A stretch of DNA of 55,010 bases from an uncultured Bacilli bacterium. GTDB taxonomy: Bacteria; Bacillota_I; Bacilli_A; RF39; UBA660. Location: contig CANPZX010000001.1 in assembly GCA_947589195.1 (NCBI GenBank), forward strand, positions 1-55,010, given 5' to 3'. The translations under genes were made by a program, and so were the position numbers. This document shows, piece by piece, positions 17,391 to 41,365 of the stretch. Under the pieces are notes generated by a model. That model saw only the letters and a program-made list of their open reading frames with translations, ran no database searches and was not told the origin of the DNA. Within the stretch, counting starts at the first letter, position 1. Every line of letters begins with the position of its first letter.

Positions 17391-17759
17391 ATGAATCAAA
17401 TTAAAGAGTATAACGAAACAATTTTTGAGAGCATAAAACACACTAATGAATATTGGCTTGCTTGAGAGTTAATGGTAGTACTTGAATATAAAAGATGGGA
17501 TAAATTTAATAATGTTATAGATAATCTAAAGTAGCTTGTGAAAAAAGTAATAATCTTATTGACGACCATTTTTCCCAAGTGGGAAAAATGGTAGAAATAG
17601 GTTCCGGAGCCAAAAGAAAACAAGCTGATTATGAGTTATCTAGATATGCTTGTTACTTAATTGTTCAAAATGCAGATTCAAGAAAAAGAAAATGTTGCAC
17701 TTGGGCAAACATATTTTGTTGTTCAAACAAGAAAACAAGAAAAGATTGAAATGAAATAA
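17391..17759 (+). pseudogene. dinD: DNA-damage-inducible protein D (DinD-like) pseudogene
   Basis: RBS GGAGGT plus ATG. Reads MNQIKEYNETIFESIKHTNEYWLA-TGA-ELMVVLEYKRWDKFNNVIDNLK, continues in another frame as VACEKSNNLIDDHFSQVGKMVEIGSGAKRKQADYELSRYACYLIVQNADSRK, then a third frame as EKVALGQTYFVVQTRKQE. That is one nonsense codon plus at least two frameshifts, and only the N-terminal half is present. Confidence 0.8.
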
Positions 17760-19993: not shown

Positions 19994-22326
<2,333 letters not shown>

Positions 22327-22342
22327 TATTAAAAACCAAGAT

Positions 22343-22366
22343 AAAGTTCTAGGAAACTAGAACTTT
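22343..22366 (+). terminator. Hairpin between dnaK and pepF (partial terminator or processing stem)
   Basis: AAAGTTCTAG-gaaa-CTAGAACTTT, a perfect 10-bp stem followed only by ATTT, so read-through is likely. Confidence 0.5.
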
Positions 22367-22389
22367 ATTTAAAAGTTAGGAGAATAAAG

Positions 22390-24171
22390 ATGGATACTTT
22401 AGAAAGAAAAGATGTCCCTAAAAAGTATTGTTGGGATTTAAGCTTACTTATTAAAGATGAACAAGATTATCAAAATAAAGTTGCCGAGATAAAAGTGCTA
22501 GGAGAACAAATACCCACTTACCAAAATCATTTATTTGATAAGGGAAAAATCTTACTATCTTATTTAGAATTATCAACGAAATTAAATGAATTACTAGAGA
22601 TAGTTTATACTTGGGCTAATCTCTATAAATACGAAGATTTAACGAATAATAAAGCAAATGATTATGTGTTAAATATAACCAATGTTTTAAATGATATTGC
22701 TAGTAAAGAAGCTTTTGTACGAAGTGAAATAATTTCCCATTCTTTAGAAGAGTTTTATAAATTAGTAAAAGAAGAACCAAAGTTAAAAAAATATGATTTT
22801 TTAATGCAAAGTTTATTTTTAGAAAAAGAACATATTTTAAGTCCTAAGGAAGAACAATTAATAACTAATTTAGTAAGAAGTTATGGAAATGTCAGTGATA
22901 CCTATGAAATTTTATGTGATGCGGAAGGAATCCTTGGAAAAATAAAAATTTTAAAAGAAGATGTAAATATAACCCAAAGCAATTATACCGAATTAATGAA
23001 AGATCAAAGAAGAAGAGTAAGAAAAAATGTTTTTAAAACTTATTATAAATTTTATGATAATTATAAAAATACTATTTCTTCTTTATATAGTACCAATGTG
23101 TTAGAAGATACGAATTTAGCTAAAGTAAGGAAATATGATAGTTCTTTAGCTATGGCTTTAGCAAGTGAAAATATTGCACCGGTTGTTTATAATAATTTAA
23201 TTAATAGTGTCCATAAATATTTAAATTTAAATCATGAATATCAAAATTTAAGAAAAAAAATCTTAAAAATAAAAGACTATCATATTTATGATAATTATGT
23301 AGAGATAACTAAAACTACGAAAAAAGATTATAATATCTTAAAATGTCAAGAAATAATTAAAGAAGCCTTAAAGCCTTTAGGTAGTGATTACTTAACTAAA
23401 CTTGATTATATGTTTAATAGTAAATATATTGATTATTACCCAACGAAAAATAAAAGAAGTGGCGCTTTTCAATGGCATAAGTATGTGATGTTAAATCATT
23501 TAGATACGAAAGATTCACTTACCACGATGGCGCATGAACTAGGGCACGCAATAAATACTCTTTATACGTTAGATAAGCAACCCTATATTTATCAAGATAA
23601 TCCGATCTTTTTAGCCGAAATTGCAAGTACCTTAAATGAAGTATTAGTGGGCGAATATTTTTATCAAAACGCGCGGACTAAACAAGAAAAAATTGTTTCT
23701 TTAACTGATTTTCTCGCTCGAGTAAATTCGACCATTTATCGTCAAACAATGTTTGCTGAATTTGAATATTTAACCCATCAAGCAAGCGAAGATAATATTT
23801 CCCTTACTTGTGAATATATGTCTCGAGAATATTTAAAATTAGTTAAAAAATACTTTACCAAAGAAATGATTATCGATGAAGAAATTAAATATGAATGGAT
23901 GCGGATACCTCATTTTTATACTTCGTTTTACGTATATAAATATGCAATTGGTTTAATTGTCGCGTTAATATTTGCTAAACGAATTTTAAATAATGAACCC
24001 GATGCGGTTAAAAATTACCTAATATTTTTAGCAAGTGGTTCGAGTGATTATCCTTTAAATATTTTAAAGAAAGCGCAAATTGATTTAACTAAAGAAGAAA
24101 CATTTACTGAAGCTTTTAGTTTGATTGAAACGAAAATAAAAGAATTGAAAGAAGTGATGAAAGATGAATAA
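22390..24171 (+). CDS. pepF: Oligoendopeptidase F (M3B)
   Basis: 593 aa, zinc motif [12 protein letters not shown], downstream [21 protein letters not shown]. Confidence 0.9.
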
Positions 24172-36728: not shown

Positions 36729-38636
36729 TTAGTTAGACAGCATCAAAGCTATTTTTCCACCTTCCTCGGCATAATATCCTCCCTCAGGGCTTTGATATAT
36801 TACTTTATTTCCAGTTCCAGAGAAATTTAATTTGAATCCTTTTAAAGTTTTTTTAGCTTCATCAACACTCATTCCGACAACATCGGGAAGCATCACATAT
36901 TTTTTATCAAGCCAAGTATATTCCCGCGGTGTAGCTTCTTTACTTTTAGGGATATCATAAATATCGATGGCTGAGGTAAAAATCCGTTTTACAATCGGTG
37001 CCGAAACTGTCCCACCATATTGGACAACCCCTTTCGGGTTATCAACCGCGGCATAAACTACTAAACTAGGGTCATCCGCGGGCATAAAACCAATAAAAGA
37101 TAAAATATAATTTCCCACCATATATCGGCCATCTTTTACTTTTTGGGCGGTTCCTGTTTTGCCTCCAATACGATAATTTTCGATATAGGCATTTTTTCCC
37201 GTTCCTTTGGCCACCACACTTTCTAAAGCAAATCTGACCATTTTACTTGTATCTTCGCTAATAACTCTTGTACCTTCATCCGGATTAAATAATTTTATGA
37301 CACTATTAGTTTCGGGTTCAGTCATTTTGGAAACAATATAAGGAGTATGTAAAATCCCTCCATTAACAACAGCCGAGACTGCTCTTACTTGTTGAATAGG
37401 TGTTACACTAATTCCTTGACCAAAACTAGTTGTCGCTAGTTCTACTGGTCCCATTTTATCAATATTAAATAAAATCCCATTTGCTTCACCATTTAAATCA
37501 ATTCCCGTTTTTTTTCCAAAACCAAAGTTATTTATATATTTCATTAAAGTTTCTTTTCCTAGTTTTTGACCCATCACGACAAATCCGGGATTACAGGAAT
37601 TTTCGACAACTTGTAAGAATGTCTCAGCTCCATGTCCTCCTGCTTTCCAACATTTAATTCTTGCTCCTTCAACGTTAATTGAACCACCATCATAATAATT
37701 ATCTTCAAATAAATTAATGGTTTGTTCTTGTAAAGAAGCGGCTAGGGTAATTATTTTAAAAGTCGACCCTGGTTCATAAGTCATCCAAATAGGTAAGTTG
37801 CGATTTATTACTTCAATACTAGACGTTTGATAAGTATTAGGATTAAAATTCGGCCGACTAGCCATCGCTAGAATTTCTCCTGTTTTTGGATTCATGGCTA
37901 AAATAAGGGCCTGGTCAGGATTATATTTGCTAATGACATTATCAAGTTCATTTTCAATTGCCAGTTGTAAATCAATATCGATAGTTAAATCAATATTAAT
38001 TCCATTTTGGGGTTCTTCATAAACTTCGGATAATTGCAGACGATTGCCTTTACCATCCGAAAAATATTTTATCGCCCCATTAACTCCCGTTAAATAATCA
38101 TCATACATAAGTTCAATTCCTGATAACCCTTGATTATCAATTCCTACATATCCTAAAACGTGGGATAAAACATTATTATAAGGGTAATATCTTTTGCTTT
38201 CTTTAACTAAATAAACTCCATCATAATTTAAATTATTAATTTTCTCAGCAATTTCATAGGATAACTGTCTTCCTTCGGGATGAACTCTTTCAATAGAAGT
38301 TTTCTTACTAATATGCCGATATATTTCTTCATATGGTGTATCTAAAATTTCTGCTAATTTTGTTGCAACTTCTTCTTTATTTTTAATTTGATTAGGGATT
38401 ACCACGAGCGAAGTAGTAGTAATATTAGTTGCTAAAACTTTTCCATTTCTATCTCTTATTTCACCTCGATCAGCCGTGATAGGTAATTCCCTGCTCCATA
38501 AAGAAGTAGCCAGATTAGCTAGTTTATCATATTGAAAAATTTGAATAAAAAATACTTTAAAAATAATTAAAATAAGTAAAACTAAAACGCCAACTAACAC
38601 TAATCTAATTCTAATATGAATATGATTAAAAAACAT
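36729..38636 (-). CDS. Class B penicillin-binding protein (SpoVD/PBP2B-like) with C-terminal PASTA domain
   Basis: N-terminal TM, dimerisation domain, SxxK GSTFKI, SxN ENSCN, KTGTA, PASTA segment MLPDVVGMSVDEAKKTL. Confidence 0.9.
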   Translation of the reverse strand: MFFNHIHIRIRLVLVGVLVLLILIIFKVFFIQIFQYDKLANLATSLWSRELPITADRGEIRDRNGKVLATNITTTSLVVIPNQIKNKEEVATKLAEILDTPYEEIYRHISKKTSIERVHPEGRQLSYEIAEKINNLNYDGVYLVKESKRYYPYNNVLSHVLGYVGIDNQGLSGIELMYDDYLTGVNGAIKYFSDGKGNRLQLSEVYEEPQNGINIDLTIDIDLQLAIENELDNVISKYNPDQALILAMNPKTGEILAMASRPNFNPNTYQTSSIEVINRNLPIWMTYEPGSTFKIITLAASLQEQTINLFEDNYYDGGSINVEGARIKCWKAGGHGAETFLQVVENSCNPGFVVMGQKLGKETLMKYINNFGFGKKTGIDLNGEANGILFNIDKMGPVELATTSFGQGISVTPIQQVRAVSAVVNGGILHTPYIVSKMTEPETNSVIKLFNPDEGTRVISEDTSKMVRFALESVVAKGTGKNAYIENYRIGGKTGTAQKVKDGRYMVGNYILSFIGFMPADDPSLVVYAAVDNPKGVVQYGGTVSAPIVKRIFTSAIDIYDIPKSKEATPREYTWLDKKYVMLPDVVGMSVDEAKKTLKGFKLNFSGTGNKVIYQSPEGGYYAEEGGKIALMLSN

Positions 38637-38678: not shown

Positions 38679-39566
38679 TTAATCTATAATTGCAAGTACG
38701 TATTTTATTAGACTGTTCTTTATCATTTCATCTTCTAATTTATTAATTGAAAAAGTTTTACTTCCTGCATAATTAAGAGATGATCCACAATGATAAACTG
38801 CTTTTCGATCTAATATAATATATCTATCATGAAAATAATTATTATAAACAATCTTTAAATTATTATATTGCTCTTGGTATTTATTTATATCTATTTCTTT
38901 TAATAAACCATTATTTTTACAAATTATAGTTACGTTAACTTTTAAATTTCTTATCATATCTAAAACATTTTTATCGGCATAATTATCAATAATAATTATG
39001 TTGTCATAGGCTCCTTTTAAAATATCAACTATTTTTGAATAAGCATCATAAATTTGGCCATTAAAATAAATTTCATTATCTTTTTTCTTTTCTTCAAATT
39101 TAATAAAAGATTCTTGCAATAATTTGATATCTTCATCGTGTTTTATTACTAAATTATTAATATATTTTTGTTCAATTAATTCATTAGAAATATATTTTCG
39201 CATTATTACAAAAGCATCCATAATTGCAATACTTACTTGGGTTGCAACATTAGATTTTAAAATAGTGGCAAGCATCGCTACACCTTGTTCTGTAAATACT
39301 TGAGGTAAAAATTTTGAATATTGTCCCCGTTTAAGTTCTAAGGTCGCATTTTGCGACCTTAGAATACCAATATATTCATTTTTACTTAATTTAAAGCAAA
39401 ATCTTGCTGGAAATTTTTGAGGATTTCTTTTTACTGCTTCATTAATTCTTTTTGTTTCTACTTCATAAAGTTTTGCTAAATCTGAGTCAAGCATTACTTG
39501 CTTTCCTCTTACTTCATAAATCATATTTTCTATTTTTACTTGTTTTGTTAGCATAACATCATTCAT
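38679..39566 (-). CDS. ORF6N-domain protein (KilA-N-related DNA-binding N-terminus) with uncharacterised C-terminal domain; intact copy 1
   Basis: IYEVRGKQVMLDSDLAKLYEVETKRINEAVKRNPQKFP..FCFKLS, FTEQGVAMLATILKS. C-terminal ...FHDRYIILDRKAVYHCGSSLNYAGSKTF. Confidence 0.8.
   Translation of the reverse strand: MNDVMLTKQVKIENMIYEVRGKQVMLDSDLAKLYEVETKRINEAVKRNPQKFPARFCFKLSKNEYIGILRSQNATLELKRGQYSKFLPQVFTEQGVAMLATILKSNVATQVSIAIMDAFVIMRKYISNELIEQKYINNLVIKHDEDIKLLQESFIKFEEKKKDNEIYFNGQIYDAYSKIVDILKGAYDNIIIIDNYADKNVLDMIRNLKVNVTIICKNNGLLKEIDINKYQEQYNNLKIVYNNYFHDRYIILDRKAVYHCGSSLNYAGSKTFSINKLEDEMIKNSLIKYVLAIID
39336..39364. repeat. Perfect intragenic palindrome in ORF6N copy 1 (13-bp arms, 3-nt centre)
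   Basis: TTCTAAGGTCGCA-ttt-TGCGACCTTAGAA, checked base by base. Encodes ILRSQNATLE near codon 72. Confidence 0.95.
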
Positions 39567-39630
39567 CTAAAATACCCCCTTACTTCGTTTATAACTAAAA
39601 TGTATCAAACCTGTTTTATCACTTTTACTA

Positions 39631-39810
39631 GAAATTATTTACGCATTATTACAAAAGTATTCATAATTACAATTCAGATTTTAAAACACTTGCAAGTATA
39701 GCTACACCTTGTTCTGTAAATACTTGAGAAAAGTATTTTCTATATGTTCATCTACCATTTTTCGGAGTTTTAAGGTCGAAATTTTCGACCTTAAAAAATT
39801 CTATTCATTA
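39631..39810 (-). pseudogene. ORF6N copy 2: internal fragment only, heavily decayed
   Basis: Aligns by eye to 39197-39390 of copy 1 (..cgcattattacaaaag..gctacaccttgttctgtaaatacttgag..) with an ~18-nt deletion and many substitutions. No start codon and no N- or C-terminal domains. Confidence 0.6.
39768..39796. repeat. Perfect palindrome in ORF6N fragment copy 2 (14-bp arms, 1-nt centre)
   Basis: TTTTAAGGTCGAAA-t-TTTCGACCTTAAAA. Relative to copy 1, the inner CA..TG pair has become AA..TT, a symmetric change that preserves pairing. Confidence 0.95.
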
Positions 39811-39843
39811 TCGATCAATAACCAAGAAAAATTTTTAACAAAC

Positions 39844-40208
39844 TTTTGCATCATTACAAAAGTGTGTATAATACTAGTACTTACTTTCAAGGCAACCGAA
39901 GTTCTTAAAATACTTGCAAGCATCGCAACTACTTACTCGGTAAAAACATATGGATTTTTTCTAATTCCACCATGCTTTGAAGTTTCAAATTGAAACTTCA
40001 AGTTTTTATATTCTTCGTTAGTTAATTGAAAATAAAAATCTTCAGGAAACCTATCAATATTTCTTTTTACTGATTGATTAATCGTCTTAGTTCCATTTAC
40101 ACATTCATAAAGTTGGGCTAAATCAGAATTGAGCATTACTTGCTTTCCTCTTACTTCGTAAATCATATTTTTAATCTTTTCTTCTTCAATTAATGCCATT
40201 GCATTCAT
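39844..40208 (-). pseudogene. ORF6N copy 3: N-terminal domain plus stub, nonsense-interrupted and 3'-truncated
   Basis: MNAMALIEEEKIKNMIYEVRGKQVMLNSDLAQLYE...YVFTE-TAA-VVAMLASILRTSVALKVS... TAA sits where copy 1 has CAA (Gln). The C-terminal domain is absent. The 5' leader (catct(t)aaaataccccc..ttcgtttataa) is duplicated from copy 1. Confidence 0.7.
39977..40001. repeat. Perfect palindrome in ORF6N copy 3 (12-bp arms, 1-nt centre)
   Basis: TTGAAGTTTCAA-a-TTGAAACTTCAA. Encodes LKFQFETS near codon 73. The sequence is unrelated to the copy 1 palindrome but sits at the same position. Confidence 0.95.
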
Positions 40209-40279
40209 CTTAAAATACCCCCCTTATTTCGTTTATAAATAAAATTTATCAAACAAATGTTCTCTTGTCAATATATATT

Positions 40280-41365
40280 TCAATTATTTTTGGAAATATT
40301 CAAAATAATGCCAATACTAGCCATACTTACAAGTAAACTACTGCCTCCATAACTAAGGAAAGGTAAAGTGACTCCAGTCACAGGAATAATTCCTACCACG
40401 ACCATTAAATTTAAAATAGCTTGAATAATTAAGCCAAAGGCGAGGCCAAAAGCTAAATATTTTGAAAATAAATCACTTGCTTTCATAGCAATCCGAATAG
40501 CTCGGTAAAAAATAAAGAAAAATAAACTGGTGACAATTAAAACTCCTAAGAAACCAAATTCTTCACTAATAATCGAAAAAATAAAATCCGTTTGGGGTTC
40601 TGGTAAATAAAAATGTTTTTGTCTTGATTTCATAAATCCCTGTCCCAGTAAGCCCCCAGGTCCAATCGCATATAAACTCTGAATAATTTGAAAACCGCTA
40701 CCTAAAGGATCACTCCAAGGATTTAAAAACGAAACAATCCTAGCCATGCGATAAGGGGCAATAATAATTAAAACAATAATACCTGCTAAACCTAAAAGAC
40801 CGATTTTAACAAAAAAATCGACTTTGACCCCCGAGATAAAAATTAAAACAATTAAAGTTAATACCATAACCATGGCCGTCCCAAAATCCGGCTCTAACAT
40901 AATAAGTCCAAAGAATACCATAATTATAAGTAAAATAGGCAAAACACCTTTTTTAATATTAAACATTAACTTTTGATTATTAGCTAAATACTTACTTACA
41001 AAAATAATTAAACCAATCTTAGCAAATTCACTAGGTTGGATACCCAAAGAACCAATCCCAAACCAACTTCGACTACCATTTCGAACTGTGCCAATTCCCG
41101 GGATTAAAACTAAGACTAATAAAATGAAACAACCAAATAATAAAGTGTTAGCTTTCTTTTTAAAAATATGATGGTCAAAATTACTTAAAAAGTACATCAG
41201 TAAAAGACCAATAACAAAGAAAATACTTTGGGCTTTAACAAACTTAAAGGCATCATGAAATTTATAATCTGCCCAGATACAACTTGCCGAATAAATCATG
41301 ACAATGCCAAATAAACAAATAAAAATAACTGCACCGACTAACCATTTATCTAATTTATGTTTCAT
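40280..41365 (-). CDS. ftsW: SEDS-family peptidoglycan polymerase FtsW/SpoVE/RodA
   Basis: 10-TM protein. GSRSWFGIGSLGIQPSEFAKI, PDFGTA, LPEPQTDFIFS, LPFLSYGGSS. Confidence 0.9.
   Translation of the reverse strand: MKHKLDKWLVGAVIFICLFGIVMIYSASCIWADYKFHDAFKFVKAQSIFFVIGLLLMYFLSNFDHHIFKKKANTLLFGCFILLVLVLIPGIGTVRNGSRSWFGIGSLGIQPSEFAKIGLIIFVSKYLANNQKLMFNIKKGVLPILLIIMVFFGLIMLEPDFGTAMVMVLTLIVLIFISGVKVDFFVKIGLLGLAGIIVLIIIAPYRMARIVSFLNPWSDPLGSGFQIIQSLYAIGPGGLLGQGFMKSRQKHFYLPEPQTDFIFSIISEEFGFLGVLIVTSLFFFIFYRAIRIAMKASDLFSKYLAFGLAFGLIIQAILNLMVVVGIIPVTGVTLPFLSYGGSSLLVSMASIGIILNISKNN

Follow-up and report, generated by a model that had tools for sequence, protein, structure and literature searches.

Palindromes within ORF6N genes as predicted operators of the encoded proteins

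A stretch of 55,010 nucleotides from an uncultured Bacilli bacterium (contig CANPZX010000001.1, positions 1 to 55,010; hereafter the window) carries three neighbouring copies of a gene for a protein with the ORF6N domain, and each copy, including one that has decayed, holds a perfect palindrome. Why should coding DNA keep such a structure, and what might it be for? Sequence comparison indicates that the three palindromes are the local case of a family-wide rule that extends through bacteria, archaea and phages. We consider it probable, from matched differences in protein and DNA, that each palindrome serves an ORF6N protein as its cognate binding site on double-stranded DNA, and that in intact genes this protein is the gene's own product. 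The most likely consequence would be negative autoregulation that does not depend on the promoter, although we are less confident of the direction of regulation than of binding.

A palindrome at a fixed codon position

Palindrome 1 lies at 39336-39364 (arms and centre 13 + 3 + 13 nt), palindrome 2 at 39768-39796 (14 + 1 + 14 nt) and palindrome 3 at 39977-40001 (12 + 1 + 12 nt); base-by-base reading and a repeat finder agreed that all three are perfect. The original prediction, made from the letters of the window, had these coordinates and arm lengths exactly right. It was also right about the distance of the palindrome centre from the first base of the start codon, 216 nt in copy 1 (start 39566) and 219 nt in copy 3 (start 40208), and about the peptides encoded there, LRSQNATLE and LKFQFETSK respectively. 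Two of its statements on the position and sequence of the sites needed correction. The site had been placed just after the ORF6N domain and instead falls within the Pfam ORF6N envelope (residues 15-102), and palindrome 3, thought to be unrelated in sequence, contains the family core T..CAA-N-TTG..A. Counting perfect arms of at least 12 nt with loops of at most 4 nt, the whole window (28% G+C) holds five perfect palindromes, against an average of 0.1 in 30 dinucleotide shuffles. Three of the five are in the ORF6N locus.

A protein-based scan with one genome per species collected 80 full-length relatives from Bacilli, Clostridia, Bacteroidota, Verrucomicrobiota, Proteobacteria, candidate phyla radiation bacteria and several archaea. 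IMG/VR supplied 80 more, mostly 190-amino-acid proteins with ORF6N and ORF6C domains. The majority of the 153 unique ORF6N N-domain regions had their best palindrome, generally a near-perfect one, on a single query nucleotide, the one that opens the codon following Q72, and the cases with a palindrome elsewhere were mostly alignment shifts of the same site. The arms reach up to 20 bp, and some genes have two to four palindrome modules within the loop. The core is free of gaps in 121 of 122 aligned sites; the lone gap block comes from one site without the family core (L020:4294-4334, where L numbers denote our loci). The sites are dyad-symmetric with fixed spacing, the half-site centres being about 10 bp, or about one helical turn, apart. 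This is what would be expected of a dimer on B-DNA, whereas a hairpin loop needs no such constancy.

The position is far more palindromic than codon-resampled controls allow. When synonymous codons were resampled with each gene's own usage across positions 2-13 in 111 genes, pairing fell from the observed 11.09 of 12 to 5.68 of 12, and 104 of the 111 genes exceeded 99% of their own synonymous resamples. The covariation set comprised 122 distinct 41-nt sites, aligned essentially without gaps. Standard pairs filled 85% of its cells, compared with 61.7% after shuffling, and the covariation score was 0.596 against 0.169 for shuffled sites (none of 500 shuffles reached 0.596) and 0.09-0.19 with the partner slid. 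Positions 10 and 11 from the centre were 94-97% Watson-Crick with four pair types each.

The reading frame leads to the same place. The 17-nt core GGTCRCAAWTTGYGACC is read in one frame as (L)RSQ(I/F)(A/V)T, for example LRSQIATS. In a second class of genes it stands one base out of that frame and is read as LV(A/T)NCD(R/Q/H), for example LVANCDRF, and the protein on either side stays in alignment. At motif position 6 the choice of V, A, G or E is set by the synonymous third base at position 3 (TCA, TCG, TCC/TTC, TTT). As one core is kept in two reading frames, the constraint is on the nucleic acid. The claim that palindromy is under selection at the level of the nucleic acid and not the protein is thus confirmed, both by the collapse of pairing on resampling and by the two-frame reading of the core. 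The reading frame of the core can change between close relatives.

In the AlphaFold2 (AF2) model of copy 1 the mean predicted local distance difference test score (pLDDT) is 75.5, with helices at residues 27-34 and 38-47 and long helices at 106-157. The palindrome-encoded residues 70-84 score below 50 and lie between helix 62-72 and strand 89-91. The encoded peptide is therefore predicted to be a permissive, disordered loop, and it looks conserved because the DNA dictates it.

Helix residues and half-site bases

The variable bases of the core track the second helix of the helix-turn-helix (HTH), residues 38-47 of copy 1 (TKRINEAVKR). We tabulated residues 39, 43 and 47 against half-site bases d7, d4 and d3. 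At residue 43, glutamine goes with A at d4 in 55 of 65 cases, glutamate with G in 49 of 50, lysine or arginine with C in 10 of 12, and leucine with T in 3 of 4. Arginine at residue 47 goes with C at d3 (115 of 118) and asparagine or serine with A (9 of 9), and lysine at residue 39 with G at d7 (102 of 105). Genes with glutamine or glutamate were concordant in 104 of 107 cases, and each of the two reading-frame classes includes both combinations. With a spacing of i, i+4 and i+8, the three residues lie on one helix face. Classically, glutamine prefers adenine, glutamate cytosine, and arginine or lysine guanine; the residue-base pairings of ORF6N match these preferences.

A neighbour-joining tree with Fitch counts of independent co-switches was abandoned, as a tree of about 75 residues was noisy (the frame character 'changes' 15 times on it), and closest-pair contrasts were used instead. 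We took the 14 nearest non-overlapping gene pairs that differ at residue 43, which are 69-87% identical outside the helix and loop. Twelve of the 14 switch d4 as predicted, and the two exceptions (L127 and L023) each hold a second, concordant palindrome. The lysine and leucine pairings were then recovered out of sample in a scan that began from the DNA, with GGTTYCAAWTTGRAACC: sites in ORF6N loops had TTCC with lysine in 20 of 20 cases and TTTC with leucine in 9 of 10, together 29 of 30, in two different helix backgrounds. About 90 nt separate the helix from the site, so the association is not a coding artefact. Site specificity thus tracks the recognition residues in the table, in the closest pairs and out of sample, as it should for an autogenous operator. 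The original prediction had listed an auto-operator among the possible roles. The covariation of helix residues and bases, confirmed out of sample, favours that role, and binding itself is what we infer from it.

The same rules can be read in the window. The predicted recognition helix of copy 1 (39423-39455, minus strand; codons 38-48, TKRINEAVKRN) is placed by the AF2 helix at 38-47 and by covariation. Its K39, E43 and R47 call for G at both d7 and d4 and for C at d3. Palindrome 1, whose half-site from d8 to d1 is GGTCGCAA, has each of these bases and is predicted to be the cognate site that the copy 1 protein recognises. Copy 3 has a variant helix with a two-residue 'NG' insertion (40059-40091, minus strand; codons 40-50, TKTINQSVKRN), so that K41 and R49 correspond to K39 and R47. 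They agree with G at d7 and C at d3 of palindrome 3 (half-site AGTTTCAA). The combination of Q45 and T at d4 belongs to the minority of pairings and was seen once elsewhere, in L401.

The mechanism that we propose would work as follows. The ORF6N N-domain would be a helix-turn-helix, and the long helix behind it would dimerise the protein. The two recognition helices (38-47) would then read two half-sites, GGTCRC, with centres one DNA turn apart. The operator would sit in the DNA for the disordered loop of the very domain that reads it, so domain and operator would be inherited, transferred and shuffled as a unit. A bound dimer could act as a roadblock or looping partner and so give negative autoregulation, a form of control that would be apt for an anti-repressor or defence protein that moves horizontally and may be toxic.

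Several points weigh against this account. The helix and the site, some 90 nt apart, are co-inherited, and shared ancestry could account for part of their association. The outer arms (d9-d13) are 74-97% Watson-Crick and not conserved in sequence, and readout of the half-site gives no account of them; in L151 they even differ between two sites, AACTGG../..CCAGTT upstream and GGGGTA../..TACCCC inside the gene. One clade keeps T.G at d9 with the pairs beyond it maintained, as an RNA stem would. Lastly, promoter-proximal copies of the palindrome upstream of ORF6N genes fit the helix of the adjacent gene only about half the time and so add nothing to the case for autoregulation. The outer-arm pairing may come from quasi-palindrome correction or from a hairpin role.

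Other explanations of the palindrome

An RNA hairpin in the ORF6N mRNA, serving processing, stability, translation pausing or the binding of the protein to its own message, seems to us unlikely. The arms are long and covary, and the predicted stabilities are considerable (-19.7, -14.9 and -11.5 kcal/mol; z-scores -6.1 to -3.8). The clade with the second frame keeps a sense-strand U.G at d9 with 3-5 further pairs beyond it, and the internal mismatches comprise 20 sense G.U, 8 antisense and 10 others. However, one clade supplies half of the sense G.U pairs, and without it G.U is about as frequent as A.C. The covariation of residues and bases follows the major-groove readout of B-DNA by a helix, the loop is constant in length and flips freely between AAA and TTT or A and T, and the palindromes are also present in DNA outside genes and ahead of predicted promoters, without any consistent orientation. 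An Rfam scan of the locus found no family at E<0.05, with only chance-level matches up to E 10. The suggestion that the palindrome might be an attenuator was not supported, since the sense strand has no U-tract; terminator-like calls were made for palindromes 2 and 3 on the antisense plus strand only, and palindrome 1 drew none. The calls reflect plus-strand T-rich tails after palindrome 2 (39768-39806) and palindrome 3 (39976-40012), which a consensus scan scored as terminator-like. These tails could be chance in DNA of 28% G+C, or a block to antisense transcription.

Quite unlikely, as an account of the whole site, is a functionless palindrome that maintains itself because intra-strand template switching outpaces point mutation in a loop permissive enough to tolerate it. 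Quasi-palindrome correction is an established mutational mechanism that proceeds by intramolecular template switching. It would keep arms complementary, extend them and invert loops, and the family has perfect outer arms without sequence conservation, flips of the loop (including that of a central A or T) and a perfect palindrome persisting in the decayed copy 2. The three-base centre is AAA in copy 1 (39350) and TTT in a close relative (L161:3217), with QN and HF in the peptides of proteins that are 87% identical; this inversion is a signature of hairpin-mediated loop inversion or template switching. Such a mutational process, however, neither conserves a core nor fits it to a protein. It leaves unexplained the conservation of the core across bacteria, archaea and phages in two frames, the residue-base code, and the result of a scan with a degenerate pattern in which 111 of 121 matches were symmetric at the free position, 70 of the 111 lying within ORF6N genes. 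We prefer quasi-palindrome correction as the explanation of the outer arms only.

We find it very unlikely that the palindrome is a DNA hairpin or cruciform acting as a hotspot for recombination or template switching and driving tandem duplication, the shuffling of domains and the expansion of linkers in this 'Bro network' family. In its favour, many loci have tandem arrays and truncated copies (the window, L004, L006, L009, L010, L014, L027, L028 and L164), some linkers hold 2-4 palindrome modules, the loop is inverted between close proteins and close relatives differ in frame. But a hotspot needs neither a conserved 17-nt core nor a match to helix residues. The original prediction had raised a duplication hotspot as a possible origin of the tandem array, and we considered the palindrome as the breakpoint between copies 3 and 2. 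This was rejected once copy 2 had been aligned to its true relative, which put the junction about 50 nt from the palindrome; both truncated copies stop at the domain boundary. Finally, we give practically no credence to palindromy as a by-product of codon bias and an internally symmetric peptide, L-R-S-Q-x-x-T-S: common as that peptide is in the family, pairing drops by half on resampling with the codon usage of each gene, the residue at position 6 varies with the synonymous third base of a Ser/Phe codon, that of position 3, genes of the second class translate this DNA into an unrelated peptide, and the segment is predicted to be disordered.

Gene copies, orphan sites and related systems

Reading the palindromes as cognate sites of ORF6N proteins also bears on the window's dead gene fragment. 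The ORF6N copies, which belong to the minus strand, are flanked by ftsW (40280-41365) and a penicillin-binding protein gene (36729-38636). Copy 2 (39600-39845, minus strand; repeats D1, D5 and D7) is, as had been claimed, degraded and non-coding: it has stops and indels, its HTH part is absent and only about codons 51-125 remain. It is a fragment of a KIS/KFS-type ORF6N paralogue, and its best alignments are with L001 and the second L164 gene, whose helix is KRINEAVKNN and whose site is GGTCGAAA; the L164 gene carries the normal palindrome GGTCGAAA..TTTCGACC. The flanks of the palindrome in copy 2 are about 20-25% diverged from the closest functional relative, with indels. By this alignment, copy 2 is an orphan site, a predicted operator left by a decayed paralogue, which would explain why a perfect palindrome stands in a dead gene. 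Palindrome 2 has the half-site GGTCGAAA, and its centre lies 216 nt upstream of the start codon of copy 1. The helix type that would be its cognate (..AVKNN or ..AVRNN, with the N or S at residue 47 that accompanies A at d3) is encoded nowhere in the window, and the window contains no ORF6N genes or family sites beyond this locus.

The symmetric change between copies 1 and 2 had been offered earlier as a compensatory change kept by a decayed gene. Copy 2 derives from another paralogue type and not from copy 1, so such changes arose between functional paralogues, and the decayed copy is a weaker argument for selection than had been supposed.

Copy 1 (38679-39566, minus strand) is an intact gene of 295 amino acids with the ORF6N HTH N-domain, a long helix and a phospholipase D (PLD)-like C-domain (HDR..D..GSxxN). 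Copy 3 (39846-40208, minus strand; repeats D2-D4) has the N-domain only. Its open reading frame (ORF) of 91 amino acids (39933-40208) ends at an in-frame stop after FTE, a TAA at 39933-39935 where copy 1 has CAA (FTE-Q); homology runs on to about residue 125 (about 39846), and the C-terminal domain is absent. Upstream of copy 3 is a TG-extended promoter-like site, TTGACA-17-TAAATT (40243-40271, minus strand), called by consensus match. Its -10 part lies within a 36-nt block (repeat D6) that recurs upstream of copy 1 at 39575-39610. With this promoter-like site, a good one, and a ribosome-binding site still in place, copy 3 might yet give rise to a protein of 91 amino acids, HTH plus loop.

In close relatives among rabbit-gut Bacilli metagenome-assembled genomes (L161, L164 and L167) an ORF6N gene always lies directly downstream of ftsW, and the other neighbours vary. 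There is one copy in L161 and in L167, two intact copies in L164, and one intact copy with two remnants in the window. This position within the cell-division cluster looks like a hotspot of insertion or turnover. The other two perfect palindromes of the window have no relation to the ORF6N family: 17565-17592 (ACCATTTTTCCCAAGTGGGAAAAATGGT) lies in a region without long ORFs and 22341-22368 (ATAAAGTTCTAGGAAACTAGAACTTTAT) in the 63-nt gap between plus-strand genes at 20497-22326 and 22390-24171.

Family sites also occur outside ORF6N genes. A 17-mer genome scan found 130 sites in the first 120 loci. Of these, 95 (73%) were within ORF6N coding matches, 14 were beside one (11 within 200 nt, 3 at 426-627 nt) and 21 were in loci without an ORF6N match or more than 1.5 kb from one. 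The 23 outside sites that we examined were mostly non-coding, often near toxin-antitoxin, restriction or conjugation genes, and sometimes formed arrays of 2-3. Orphan arrays of this kind lie in non-coding DNA at L250 (about 3259), L188 (2177, 2506, 3505), L271 (2796, 2823), L269 (about 5210) and L224 (about 1682), where no ORF6N gene was detected in the 8-kb locus; their neighbours include genes for an MmeI-like methylase, HigA, HicAB, MNT/DUF2442 and Tpt1/NADAR. Readings of the intergenic copies as integron attC sites, REP/RAYT-like elements or terminators were dropped, as flanking core motifs or U-tracts are absent and also because the residue-base code points to ORF6N.

In several loci copies of the palindrome lie 24-200 nt upstream of an ORF6N start. 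The idea that these are self-operators was not supported, about 11 lineages being cognate and 10 not. Lost paralogues may have left them behind, as in the window, or they may be targets of other ORF6N proteins. At L017:2500-2884 four perfect intergenic palindromes with a period of about 120 nt form tandem repeat units upstream of an ORF6N gene and precede a consensus-like promoter, TTGACA-17-TAAAAT (2922-2950); all four share the outer arms of the internal site, AAACTTGAAGT, and they have two cores, TTTC and TCAC. A hybrid site with half-sites TCAC and TCGC (TTGAGGTCACAATTTGCGACCTCAA; L068:492-516) precedes an ORF6N gene by 37 nt, and either a heterodimer or two paralogues could have it as their target. 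At L258:7959-7975 a family palindrome stands just upstream of a gene whose N-terminus we judged by eye to be RhuM-like, and related domains may use the same kind of site.

Both coding copies belong to Pfam ORF6N (PF10543), with 108 bits for copy 1 and 99.4 bits for copy 3 against a gathering cut-off of 27.8. Copy 1 also matches the PADLOC defence candidate PDC-S05 (PDLC04869, E 6.5e-91, residues 4-289, with three further PDC-S05 models matching), and the locus proteins match PHROG anti-repressor families by profile. Phage anti-repressors of this sort have been described as 'Bro network' proteins (PMC10111431). One PDC-S05 representative, another protein, described as having a RhuM domain, was reported to protect E. 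coli B from T7, T5 and T4 (bioRxiv 10.1101/2024.09.26.614923). A search of INPHARED for a cultured phage carrier returned five unannotated metagenomic records only, and a search of PDB sequences gave no match.

The C-terminal half of copy 1 (38679-39180) has a predicted PLD fold, and the architecture of the whole protein resembles that of TrmBL2. Foldseek gave TrmBL2/TrmB as the best PDB matches over about 275 columns, weak ones with template-modelling (TM) scores of 0.31-0.35 and a large root-mean-square deviation, and matched the C-domain to the PLD nucleases NucT, Zucchini and PLD3 and to SauUSI. H246, D247, R248, G261, S263 and N265 of the C-domain are invariant and D253 is at least 90% conserved; compared with the PLD/HKD motif HxK(x)4D(x)6GSxN, R replaces K and the spacing is 1-2 residues longer. 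No Pfam family matched this domain. The modelled fold may serve as a nuclease or as a ligand or oligomerisation domain.

Among known systems, the arrangement is most like parS within spo0J/parB of Bacillus subtilis, the binding site of ParB, and the operators within genes that are described below. Like the ORF6N site, parS is a perfect palindrome (16 bp) in the coding sequence of its own HTH protein, conserved across many bacteria. Unlike it, parS serves chromosome segregation as a centromere from which spreading is nucleated, has further copies around the origin and lies outside the codons of the DNA-binding domain. To our knowledge no family-wide frame switch or residue-base code has been described for parS. 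Operators within genes are also familiar, as in purR (downstream of the start), lacO2 in lacZ and galOI in galE. These too are dyad-symmetric sites in transcribed or coding DNA that are bound by dimeric HTH repressors and act by roadblock or looping; they are single-species cases, whereas in bacteria, archaea and phages alike the ORF6N site keeps to one codon position of the domain.

For the pairing of protein and site the TrmB family is the closest analogue, and through the weak fold match it offers a further likeness in its winged HTH, long helix and PLD-like C-domain. The TrmBL1/Tgr operators, the Thermococcales glycolytic motif, are TATCAC-N5-GTGATA (PMC4158304). ORF6N sites share this geometry, one ORF6N subclass has the exact sequence (GGTATCACAAAATGTGATACC), and TrmBL2 binds coding as well as intergenic regions. 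TrmB operators, in contrast, stand at promoters of sugar-metabolism genes and not within trmB, and no sequence profile links the families: Pfam gives ORF6N alone for the locus proteins, even at E up to 10.

The arrangement thus belongs with autogenous operators, a known kind. In the literature open to our searches on ORF6N, KilA-N, RhuM and PDC-S05 we found no DNA target, palindrome or autoregulation for ORF6N, in line with the earlier statement that the feature had not been described. Nor did that literature contain an operator at a fixed codon position of the domain that reads it, conserved in bacteria, archaea and phages, surviving a change of frame and diversifying together with the helix.

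ORF6N is widespread in phage 'anti-repressors', in genes of genomic islands and in the defence candidate PDC-S05. For this family the analysis supplies a predicted DNA target, a predicted recognition helix and a simple, testable specificity code. The overlap of a protein code and a predicted operator code is unusually clean, long kept and able to survive a change of reading frame. The palindrome can serve annotation as a mark of ORF6N genes and their remnants, and the family may offer naturally orthogonal pairs of regulator and operator. There is also a caution here, that strong covariation in an intragenic stem need not signal RNA structure.

The evidence seems to us evenly balanced on the widest form of the idea, in which ORF6N would be a self-recognising module that carries its own predicted operator at a fixed position, in any frame of the loop, with a code close to one residue for one base and with helix and site diversifying together. 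If this is true, each paralogue would have a private feedback loop independent of its promoter, and the orphan operators of dead genes would wire the ORF6N genes of different mobile elements into cross-regulatory networks.

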